This document shows positions 18,991 to 21,843 of a DNA stretch of 64,000 bases, one piece after another. The notes beneath the pieces were generated by a model. The model was not told where the DNA came from and ran no database searches. It was given only the letters and a program-made list of their open reading frames with translations. The stretch is from Acidocella sp. Its GTDB lineage: Bacteria > Pseudomonadota > Alphaproteobacteria > Acetobacterales > Acetobacteraceae. Made by a program: the position numbers and the translations under genes. The stretch's first letter is position 1; the number at the start of each line of letters is the position of its first letter. Location: positions 988 to 64,987 of the forward strand of contig NZ_DATLPB010000012.1 of the NCBI RefSeq assembly GCF_035535915.1, in the 5' to 3' direction.

Positions 18991-19595
18991 GATTTTGCCT
19001 TTCTACCAAAAATAGGTTGATCGCGCGGCCCGAGCTTCCGATAGGCCGTGGACGGGCTGATCCCGATCTTCGCCGCGGCGGCATTGCCGGTCAGCGCCGG
19101 GTCCAGCCAGATCGCCAGCGCGGCCTCCTTGGCCTTCCCCGTGAGCTTCGTAGGCGTGCCGCCCAGGCGGCCGGTTTCAGCCCGCCGGACGCGCGCCTTG
19201 GCCAGCGCAAAGCTGCGGGTCAGTGTCTCGGCCCGGTTGCAGAAATCCACCACAGCCAGCGCCTCAGGGCTCCACGGTATGGCCTGCCCTGTGCTGGCAT
19301 CGAACACCGCGCCCTCGCGCCTGCCGATGGCCTGCAGCACCTCGAAGACCGCACCACGCGAACCGCCCAGGACTGCCGGCGATGCCACGGCAAGCTCATC
19401 GCCCGGTCGCATGGCGCGCAACGCCTCGGCCAGATCGGGCCGAGGTTCGGCGCCAGACTTTCGCCGCTTCTGGGCACGGTCACACCACACGGGGCCTTCG
19501 TCGCTAAAGTCATCGATGCCCGCGCCGCGCAGCGCCTCCTTCTGCTCTTTGAGGCTTGGCAAACCCGGCGCTTCGTTCATGTATCCTAGTCGCAC
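18987..19595 (-). CDS. Serine resolvase-like protein with C-terminal HTH; canonical catalytic residues absent
   Basis: GTG start MRLGYMNEAPGLPSLKEQKEALRGAG; RPDLAEALRAMRPGDELAV; GGTPTKL; C-terminal AAAKIGISPSTAYRKL. Confidence 0.8.
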   Translation of the reverse strand: MRLGYMNEAPGLPSLKEQKEALRGAGIDDFSDEGPVWCDRAQKRRKSGAEPRPDLAEALRAMRPGDELAVASPAVLGGSRGAVFEVLQAIGRREGAVFDASTGQAIPWSPEALAVVDFCNRAETLTRSFALAKARVRRAETGRLGGTPTKLTGKAKEAALAIWLDPALTGNAAAAKIGISPSTAYRKLGPRDQPIFGRKAKS

Positions 19596-19652
19596 TATCT
19601 CGCACCTGTTGTCATGTTGACAGAATGACATAACAGATGATAGATTGCAATC

Positions 19653-19895
19653 ATGATCAAGCTCACCACCCATGCCGAAGAAATGATTGCCGACCGGGGC
19701 ATCGCCCTGGCATGGGTTGTGAGCGCGATCGAGGCCCCGGACTCCCGCGCCGTTGACCCGCGCGACCCGAGCCTGACCCGTTCTTATCGGAAGATTTCTG
19801 AGGCTGATGGGCGTATTCTCCGGGTTGTTCATCGCCCGGATGGTGCCGATATTCTGGTGATCACGGCGTTTTTTGATAGAGGAATGAAGCTATGA
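19653..19895 (+). CDS. DUF4258-like putative toxin (RelE-like)
   Basis: LTTHAEEMIADRGI...LRVV...LVITAFFDR; ATGA overlap with the next gene. Confidence 0.8.
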   Translation: MIKLTTHAEEMIADRGIALAWVVSAIEAPDSRAVDPRDPSLTRSYRKISEADGRILRVVHRPDGADILVITAFFDRGMKL

Positions 19896-20086
19896 TCTCG
19901 ACCAACTACGACCCCGAAGCGGACGCCCTCTATGTGCAGATCGCGCCAAAGGGAACGCCGGTTGCAGAGACCCGCGAGATTGAACCGGGCGTGATCCTGG
20001 ACGTTGACGCTAAGGGCTCCGTCATCGGTATCGAGGTGTTGGGCGTGCGCGCTCGGTCCGCTGGTACGCCGGCTGCCGCTGCCTGA
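19892..20086 (+). CDS. DUF2283-like putative antitoxin
   Basis: YDPEADALYV...GVILDVDAKGSVIGIEVLG. Confidence 0.85.
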   Translation: MISTNYDPEADALYVQIAPKGTPVAETREIEPGVILDVDAKGSVIGIEVLGVRARSAGTPAAAA

Positions 20087-20261
20087 TTCCGCTAAGTGAG
20101 GCGACGGAAGCCGGTAGGAGATAATCCGGCCCTGCTCACCGAATCGAGGGGTGGCTACGCACAGCAAGCCGAAAGGTTGTCCCGCTGCCAACGTCACAAT
20201 GCCACAGCGATAGTCCATGACTGCAGCCGCACTATCTGCCGTCGCCTCGCTTAGCTGAATC
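20085..20261 (+). other. 177-nt element closed by a 23-bp imperfect inverted repeat (candidate structured RNA or MITE)
   Basis: GATTCCGCTAAGTGAGGCGACGG (20085-20107) pairs with CCGTCGCCTCGCTTAGCTGAATC (20239-20261); internal hairpins. Confidence 0.6.
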
Positions 20262-20287
20262 GAGTCCCACAACTGCCCGGAGCCGAC

Positions 20288-20599
20288 ATGGTAACTCTTA
20301 CGGACGTCAGGAACATGACCCTCTGCCAGCCGGGCGTAATCGGCGCGCGAGTTTCTGACGAGACGGCCAGGTGCATCACGGTCGAAGTATGGCTTGAAGA
20401 GGAAGCCGCAATCGAGCGCTTGCGGCAGACCTACTACAACAATTTACCTCTCGGCATTTCGCCAACTGTCCGCATTATGGATGGCCCCGTGCCTGCCGAT
20501 GCGCTGCCGTCTCGGCGCGATCTTCCGGCGCCTTACATCGATGTGGCTGCTGAACCCGGGCACCAGATCGCGATCAGCGGCCCTCCTGAATCCTCCTAA
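20288..20599 (+). CDS. Hypothetical protein
   Basis: 103 aa; GGAG RBS; no recognised motif. Confidence 0.55.
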   Translation: MVTLTDVRNMTLCQPGVIGARVSDETARCITVEVWLEEEAAIERLRQTYYNNLPLGISPTVRIMDGPVPADALPSRRDLPAPYIDVAAEPGHQIAISGPPESS

Positions 20600-20606
20600 T
20601 CCCCGA

Positions 20607-20657
20607 GCTACTTTTTGTGAGCAAAAAGTAGCAAAAAACTTTTTAAAACTTTTCTTT
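20607..20657. repeat. Partial host palindromic repeat (copy D) inside the prophage
   Basis: GCTACTTTTTG-TGAG-CAAAAAGTAGC-AAAAAACTTT matches the left module of copies A, B and E. Confidence 0.85.
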
Positions 20658-20709
20658 CACATTGCGTCTCTGCACGCGAATCCCACGAACAAAAAGACTA
20701 CCCGGGCGT

Positions 20710-21843
20710 CTATGCCTCTTTCCGAACCGGCCCGGCCGGCGTGCCGGCGAGGAACGCTTCGATCTGTGGCCGGTAGGCATCCGGCATTTTGTGCGCGTAG
20801 ATCTCGACCTGGTCGACGCTCTGCCAGCCGCCTTCGTTGCGCAGCAGCAGCAGGTCCTTGTGCAGGCAATAATGCCAGGTGGCCCAGGTGTGGCGCATGT
20901 CGTGCGGGGTGAATTCAGAGGTCCAGCGGCGCTTCGGTTTTCCTGTGACGCGGTGCTTGTACTCAACCCACTGGCCGGGCAGGCCGGCATGGCGGCAGGC
21001 GATCGCCCAGCCGGTCTTGATCTGCCCGCCGGCCTGGCGGTCATTGTTGTGATAGGCAGCGGCCTTGATCACTACCCTGCCAGCCTTGTTGCGGACTTCT
21101 CGGGTCAAAAACACATTGCCGCAGCGGTGCGGAATCGCGCTCAAGCTGGCGATCGCCGCCGGCGGCAGGTCGTAATGGCGTTCACGGCCGTTCTTGGTAT
21201 CGCGGAACACAACGCGGCCAGCGAATAGATCAACGTCCTCCCACTGCAGCTCGAGCGCCTCGGAAAGGCGTGCCCCGGTGAATAGGCAGAAGGCCAGCAG
21301 CGGGCGCAGATGCGGCGCCGCATGCTGGATCAGCGACGTCGCCTGGTCGGGGCGTAGGAAGGCCACACGAGAAGGCGGCTGGACGGGGATGTCGAATTTC
21401 GGGACGTCGCACCATTTGCGCTTGGCGGCATGGTTGAGCACGGCGCGCAGCGGGGCGAGCACGGTGCGCAATTTGTTGGCGTTGGACGCGTTCGCCGGCA
21501 GCAGTACCTGGTAGGCACGGTCGAGCGCTTCCTGGTCGATCTTGTCGAGTGTCGTGGTCTTGAAATGCAGCAGCAATGCCTTGAGGCGCTTCTGATCGGG
21601 TTCGGACGGCTGATGCGCCTGAATGAAGGCGGTTACGGCGCGTGGGAAGGGGACCGCAGCCTTGGTGCCAAAGACACTACTTTGCCAGAGCTCGGCCTCG
21701 CGGAGCGCGCAATAGGCTTTGGCTTGCTCGGGGTCAGCAGTGCCAGTGCTTTCGTAAACTCGCTGTCCGCGGACGGTGCCGCGGGCATAGAAGACGGACG
21801 TGCCAGGGCGCTTGACGGCTTTGATGCCTGTTGATCCGGGCAT
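20710..21843 (-). CDS. int: Tyrosine recombinase (phage integrase)
   Basis: FTGARLSEAL (R), DTKNG (K), HDMRHTWAT (HxxR), GGWQS...VEIYAH (Y); GGAGAG RBS. Confidence 0.95.
   Translation of the reverse strand: MPGSTGIKAVKRPGTSVFYARGTVRGQRVYESTGTADPEQAKAYCALREAELWQSSVFGTKAAVPFPRAVTAFIQAHQPSEPDQKRLKALLLHFKTTTLDKIDQEALDRAYQVLLPANASNANKLRTVLAPLRAVLNHAAKRKWCDVPKFDIPVQPPSRVAFLRPDQATSLIQHAAPHLRPLLAFCLFTGARLSEALELQWEDVDLFAGRVVFRDTKNGRERHYDLPPAAIASLSAIPHRCGNVFLTREVRNKAGRVVIKAAAYHNNDRQAGGQIKTGWAIACRHAGLPGQWVEYKHRVTGKPKRRWTSEFTPHDMRHTWATWHYCLHKDLLLLRNEGGWQSVDQVEIYAHKMPDAYRPQIEAFLAGTPAGPVRKEA

Follow-up and report, generated by a model that had tools for sequence, protein, structure and literature searches.

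Immediately downstream of a DUF4258/DUF2283 toxin-antitoxin (TA) pair in a prophage of Acidocella sp. lies a short segment whose two ends can pair into a long stem. This raises the question of whether the segment is a structured RNA that belongs to the TA module or a piece of DNA that was inserted beside it. The first-pass annotation of the locus, made from the sequence alone, offered two readings, a 3'-UTR-derived structured RNA tied to the module or a MITE; an Rfam scan, a search for empty sites and a search for other copies were suggested as ways to decide. The window, by which we mean the whole 64-kb stretch of DNA that was analyzed, contains prophage genes for terminase, portal, tail sheath, tape measure and methyltransferases.

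Position and anatomy of the element

The element sits in a plus-strand unit whose order is promoter-like site, DUF4258, DUF2283, element, linker and ORF103, with a hairpin after ORF103. Features of the locus are as follows.

19617-19646, plus-strand unit: promoter-like site
19653-19895, plus strand: DUF4258 gene (Pfam E = 1e-9)
19892-20086, plus strand: DUF2283 gene (Pfam E = 2.1e-18)
20085-20261, no strand assigned: inserted element, 177 nt if inserted without target duplication
20087-20261: 175-nt core, the alternative bounds, flanked by GA direct repeats at 20085-20086 and 20262-20263
20085-20110: left terminal inverted repeat with a 23-bp core (26 bp when extended), whose first two bases are the last two of the DUF2283 stop codon
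20111-20235: interior, 125 nt
20236-20261: right terminal inverted repeat
20096-20254, plus strand: 52-aa GTG ORF within the element, no family match
20262-20290, plus strand: stop-to-start linker, G TCCCACAACTGCCCGGAG CCGAC ATG, carrying the ribosome-binding site (RBS) of the 103-aa ORF
20288-20599, plus strand: ORF103, a 103-aa orphan ORF downstream of the element
20710-21843, minus strand: tyrosine integrase, a generic Phage_integrase match about 450 bp downstream of the element

The DUF4258 and DUF2283 genes overlap by 4 nt, lie upstream of the insertion and were both left intact. The linker between the element and ORF103 reads GTCCCACAACTGCCCGGAGCCGAC, and ORF103 is presumably cotranscribed with the TA pair.

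Direct reading of the arms gave GATTCCGCTAAGTGAGGCGACGG for 20085-20107 and CCGTCGCCTCGCTTAGCTGAATC for 20239-20261. The 23-bp closing stem described in the first-pass annotation was recovered exactly, with 21 Watson-Crick pairs, one T-G pair (20097/20249; G-U as RNA) and one C-T mismatch (20090/20256), and the left arm does begin in the DUF2283 stop codon, at the second base of TGA (20084-20086). A repeat search extended the inverted repeat to 26 nt at 88% complementarity; the terminal repeat sequence is GATTCMGCTAAGYGAGGCGACGG. Each arm also holds a weak internal dyad, TTCCG..CGGAA, which on direct reading spans only 5 bp. The GC content of the element, 59%, is the same as that of its surroundings.

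By direct count, this is the sole inverted repeat in the 64-kb window with at least 20/23 matches and a loop of at most 300 nt, and from base composition 0.003 inverted repeats with at least 21/23 matches are expected by chance per window and 0.15 per genome. Across the 3.66-Mb host genome, 52 inverted-repeat clusters reach 20/23, most of them members of AT-rich palindromic repeat families of the host that have no relation to the element. Several such families are present in multiple copies of about 80 nt (for example, C56:10916-10993, C108:66109-66188 and C91:50630-50708 in host genome G000), and their arms read GCGTATTTTCCCTGTTCCGTCAA.., GCAAAAAAACTTTATTATGCTGG.. and GCTACTTTTTGTGAACAAAAAGTAGC. 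A near-identical copy of the third type (GCTACTTTTTGTGAGCAAAAAGTAGC) is found directly past ORF103 in the prophage, at window positions 20607-20650.

Related loci lack the element

The window was compared with seven related metagenome loci (L014, L015, L159, L160, L161, L162 and L164), among which three variants of the DUF2283 gene are represented. An eighth locus, L163, ends 15 nt past the stop, within the linker. The empty sites proposed as a search target were found in all seven loci: the element is absent, and the stop codon passes straight into the conserved RBS linker. The closest relatives are L014 and L015, two JGI metagenome contigs that carry the sole homologue of ORF103; their identity to the window is 96.9% across DUF2283 and 96.2% across ORF103. 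Their junction reads GCCTGA followed by TCCAACAATTCCCCGGAGCCGACATG, with nothing between, and when a single gap is placed against L014, the best fit is a gap of 178 nt that starts at 20087 or 20088.

The remaining loci carry DUF2283 relatives of two kinds, namely, P0003 (96% identical over 83% of the query; L159 and L160) and P0004 (86% identical; L161-L164). In L159, L160, L161, L162 and L164 the stop codon is TAA, followed by one base and then the same linker (ATCCCACAAATCCCCGGAG or ATTCAACAACTGCCCGGAG), after which the downstream gene differs in each. L160 has the full DUF4258-DUF2283 pair and still lacks the element. Removing the 177 nt at 20085-20261 from the window restores GCCTGAGTCCCACAAC, and the resulting junction, GCCTGAGTCCCACAACTGCCCG, is almost identical to GCCTGAGTCCACCAACTGCCCG in L161; the exact empty-site sequence is GCCTGAGTCC. 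The bounds of the indel fall within 3 nt of the ends of the inverted repeat. The linker that adjoins the DUF2283 stop in relatives is displaced 177 nt downstream in the window. A search of viral contigs for related loci with DUF2283 and with ORF103 returned none.

Because the empty arrangement spans three DUF2283 variants with different downstream genes, parsimony identifies the filled state as derived, a lineage-specific insertion. Two events fit the alignments equally well: 177 nt inserted with no duplication of the target, or 175 nt inserted together with a duplication of 2 bp, GA (20085-86 and 20262-63). No target duplication longer than this GA fits the sequence, and the GA itself could be coincidence. 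Neither the DUF2283 frame with its stop codon nor the RBS linker is disrupted by the insertion. As a lineage-specific insertion that the related loci lack, the element is taken to be no part of the TA module.

Three further observations were made in these loci. The linker sequence TCCMACAANTSCCCGGAG (window 20265-20282) is conserved after the DUF2283 stop in L014, L159, L160 and L161, whatever gene follows, and is present only once in the window. In L014 (1640-1690, compared with window 19637-19895), the promoter and DUF2283 are kept and the DUF4258 toxin has been lost by a clean in-frame deletion that joins ATGAT to AATGAAGCTATGA; a 5-codon stub, MIMKL, remains and overlaps the antitoxin start, so that this locus reads as an orphan antitoxin. 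Lastly, a 152-nt noncoding stretch separates the DUF2283 stop from the next gene in L161 (3202-3353) and L162 (416-567). It contains two linker-like sequences, and its last letters, ...GCCTGA, directly precede the second linker, so that the stretch resembles what is left of a decayed cassette.

A search of 5.8 billion proteins found a single further homologue of ORF103, the gene displaced by the insertion, at 89% identity; ORF103 has no match in Pfam or PHROG. Comparison of window 20288-20599 with L014:1898-2209 revealed 12 nucleotide differences, of which 11 are nonsynonymous and 1 is synonymous, with 8 of the 12 at codon position 1; in the neighboring DUF2283 gene, the same comparison gave 5 synonymous changes versus 1 nonsynonymous change. 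By these counts, either ORF103 evolves under relaxed or diversifying selection or it is no conventional protein gene. A minus-strand gene beneath ORF103 was considered and rejected, because its frame contains a stop and its composition is antisense-like.

The folding signal resides in the terminal stem

Folding of the whole element gave −72.9 kcal/mol on the plus strand (z = −3.84; none of 200 shuffles did as well) and −81.1 kcal/mol on the minus strand (z = −4.35), which folds better than the plus strand. The interior (20111-20235) showed no significant fold on either strand relative to shuffled sequence, with z = +1.00 for plus and +0.61 for minus. The entire folding signal therefore resides in the terminal stem. 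The first-pass annotation had also listed several inner helices and a GAAA-loop hairpin. The complementary strings do exist, but jointly they are not above chance, because the interior folds no better than its shuffles. Its argument that tolerance of G-U pairing marks the element as a plus-strand RNA does not hold either, because the one wobble pair on which it drew carries no weight and the minus strand folds better.

A scan of 19000-21500 against Rfam 15, at E values up to 10, gave nothing overlapping 20085-20261, so the suggested search did not place the element in an RNA family. A conserved structured RNA would be expected to have homologues whose base pairs covary and to outfold its shuffles in more than one stem; here, no homologues were found to align, and nothing beyond the single stem beats shuffled sequence. 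With the element missing from seven of seven related DUF2283 loci, its interior at chance and no Rfam match, the proposal of a structured 3'-UTR RNA tied to the TA module is not supported.

More specific RNA identities were also rejected. A 6S-like or Y-RNA-like RNA was ruled out by the lack of an Rfam match and the unstructured interior. An intrinsic terminator was ruled out since the stem is followed by GAGTCCCACAAC, with no U-tract, and a terminator scan was blank here. In retrons, the a1/a2 inverted repeats flank a noncoding RNA (msr-msd) directly upstream of a reverse transcriptase gene. Inverted repeats are present at this locus, but neither ORF103 nor the other neighbors have a reverse transcriptase domain, and none of the retron families in Rfam matched the element.

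Searches for copies, a parent IS and coding capacity

The element was searched for in the host genome, about 725 related genomes, 185,579 species genomes, metagenome contigs, viral contigs, phages and plasmids. It proved to be a singleton in every collection, and the other copies that the first-pass annotation had asked for were not found. In the 3.66-Mb host genome, the element is present in a single copy and neither arm occurs a second time. Whole-element DNA searches of the host genome, 200 family genomes, 400 order genomes, plasmids and phages returned only chance matches of 29 to 46 nt. One of these falls within an unremarkable ORF of 293 aa, and the rest are in no shared gene. No source sequence emerged when the element was compared by BLAST with the remainder of the prophage and with the related loci.

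Searches based on the termini gave a similar picture. A 17-mer from the terminal repeat matched 58 loci in the 185,579 species genomes and 85 loci in metagenome contigs, counts that are about the chance rate for a 17-mer. BLAST of the element against all 58 and 85 loci showed single-arm matches only, with no second arm and no interior similarity. Terminal-repeat pattern scans of viral contigs gave 0 matches. When 3 mismatches were tolerated, the terminal repeat yielded 2 single matches in 62 further species of the genus, versus 3 for a reversed control. A covariance model of the terminal stem, run on the host genome and 60 relatives, found unrelated palindromes only. One palindrome picked up by this stem-only model, in another species of the same genus (L173, G360:C1:2659333-2659401), is a near-perfect 69-nt palindrome, ATTCCCGCGCAAGCGGGAATC...GATTCCCGCTTGCGCGGGAAT, that is unrelated in sequence to the element. 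No autonomous IS with matching ends was found in any collection searched, and the genome and metagenome scans gave no paired-arm matches.

The interior (20111-20235) has no homologue in any collection searched and contains no convincing gene. The phmmer matches of the 52-aa ORF were spurious, as the two "proteins" are translated tandem repeats of which a single unit scores 22 bits. A protein-level search with the minus-strand open frame gave no candidate.

Alternative explanations

The history of the locus can be read in the opposite direction, with an ancestral element that the relatives lost by precise, hairpin-mediated deletion. Long palindromes are unstable, and deletion at the base of a hairpin is a known process; L014, with its in-frame loss of the toxin gene, shows another clean deletion. 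However, deletions of equal precision would need to have arisen independently at least three times, and the lineages differ in stop codons (TGA and TAA) and in downstream genes yet keep the same spacing between stop and linker. We consider ancestral presence highly improbable and retain lineage-specific insertion. An inserted element could still be a functional cis-acting RNA acquired by the phage, that is, an intercistronic RNase III processing or stability site that sets the ratio of TA to ORF103. The element lies inside a plus-strand operon, between the promoter-like site (19617-19646) and the hairpin after ORF103; its stem is long enough for RNase III; one stem mismatch is a G-U pair on the plus strand; and the insertion probably affects the transcript in this way whatever its origin. 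On the other hand, the element is not conserved, being absent in every relative, its interior is unstructured, the better fold is on the minus strand, Rfam offers no match, the single G-U pair carries no weight, and no sign of selection was seen. We therefore regard an acquired functional RNA as unlikely, though it is the strongest of the alternatives.

Recombination offers a further reading, in which the element is an inverton or another substrate of site-specific recombination, with inverted recombinase sites of 23 to 26 bp flanking a 125-bp switch. The geometry resembles that of known invertons (inverted repeats of 20 to 30 bp around 100 to 300 bp), a tyrosine integrase is encoded about 450 bp downstream, and each arm has the weak dyad TTCCG..CGGAA. 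No promoter-like site lies within the segment on either strand, however, the relatives are without the whole segment rather than carrying an inverted version, and the dyad is just 5 bp, so that this reading ranks slightly below ancestral presence in our estimation. Comparable in probability to ancestral presence, and thus also highly doubtful, is the broader idea that a mobile or recombination system not yet described has been sighted here for the first time, the element being either an excisable or invertible phage switch or the founder of a MITE family. As a switch, its 23- to 26-bp arms would be recognized by one of the neighboring recombinase-like proteins, which would toggle the coupling of TA and ORF103; as a MITE founder, it would have an autonomous partner not yet sequenced. 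Although the absence of relatives in all collections is mildly curious, on present evidence we do not see a new kind of system. Least probable by our reckoning, and barely credible, is that the element encodes a small protein. The 52-aa GTG frame at 20096-20254 does fit within it, but the frame has no Shine-Dalgarno sequence, no Pfam match and only spurious phmmer matches, and frames of such length are common at 59% GC.

A probable orphan MITE-like insertion and its likely consequences

MITEs are noncoding elements of less than 500 bp with terminal repeats of about 4 to 30 bp (PMC10969869). The element is 177 nt long, carries no transposase gene and has terminal repeats of 23 bp, extendable to 26 bp; seven of seven related loci are empty, and the indel ends at the terminal repeats. 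In these respects, the MITE alternative of the first-pass annotation fits both the anatomy and the empty-site polymorphism. What does not fit is the absence of a family: multiple related copies were found neither in the host genome nor in any other collection, and a parent IS was found neither in the host genome nor in the genome and metagenome scans. The composition differs as well, since prokaryotic MITEs are typically AT-rich and the element has 59% GC. We use the label "orphan MITE-like" because MITE anatomy is present and a copy family and parent IS are not. On balance, and with slightly better than even confidence, we conclude that the element is an orphan MITE-like, lineage-specific insertion that landed exactly where the DUF2283 stop meets the ribosome-site linker of the following gene.

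On this orphan MITE-like reading, a transposase acting in trans on the inverted repeats would have placed the element, probably in another host or strain, and the element would have been stranded since. It is probably neutral and without a dedicated function of its own. Its place within a plus-strand operon makes transcription probable, and the main consequence of the insertion would most likely be felt at the RNA level. The terminal repeats of Correia elements are cut by RNase III in mRNA (PMC10969869). By analogy, the 23-bp stem, if transcribed, would form a long RNase III-type duplex that could separate or destabilize the TA and ORF103 parts of the message. In addition, the shift of the ORF103 RBS to 177 nt from the DUF2283 stop would break the tight coupling of the relatives.

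These results bear on how the locus should be used. The stem that follows the antitoxin gene does not look like a concealed RNA partner of the DUF4258/DUF2283 module, and inferences about how this poorly known TA pair is regulated should not draw on it. Instead, the locus offers a natural example of a compact phage operon that tolerates a foldback insertion, at a position that spares the antitoxin frame, its stop codon and the RBS linker. If the stem is processed in vivo, filled and empty variants of the prophage would constitute a natural pair for measuring how operon expression is rewired.

Comparison with known systems

Integron attC sites resemble the element in being imperfect inverted repeats directly after the stop of a small cassette-like gene. 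The arms of the element, in contrast, are without the R''/R' core motifs (RYYYAAC / GTTRRRY), its 177 nt exceed the typical attC length, and it is a single site. An attC identity was rejected, as direct reading found the core motifs absent and no IntI-type integrase was evident, only the generic Phage_integrase match nearby. Invertons of the hix, gix and fimS type share with the element a short segment bracketed by 20- to 30-bp inverted repeats with recombinase genes nearby; the difference is that the element showed neither a promoter nor any other switchable signal within it. The phage RNase III sites T7 R1-R5 and lambda sib likewise place a long duplex between cistrons of a polycistronic message. 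They are conserved phage parts whose processing has been demonstrated, whereas the element is absent from relatives and its processing is putative.

The closest comparison is with the Correia/NEMIS elements of Neisseria, the ERIC/IRU elements of enterobacteria and QMITE2 of Coxiella. These elements are multicopy, usually AT-rich, and have a recognizable consensus and clear target duplications (TA for Correia), whereas the present element is a singleton with local GC, a GA duplication of at most 2 bp and no identifiable parent IS. Like them, it is small and noncoding, in the range of about 100 to 200 bp, with terminal inverted repeats (23 to 29 bp in the known families) that fold the transcript into a long stem, and like them it occupies an intergenic position beside a stop codon and is polymorphic, filled or empty, among relatives (PMC10969869).
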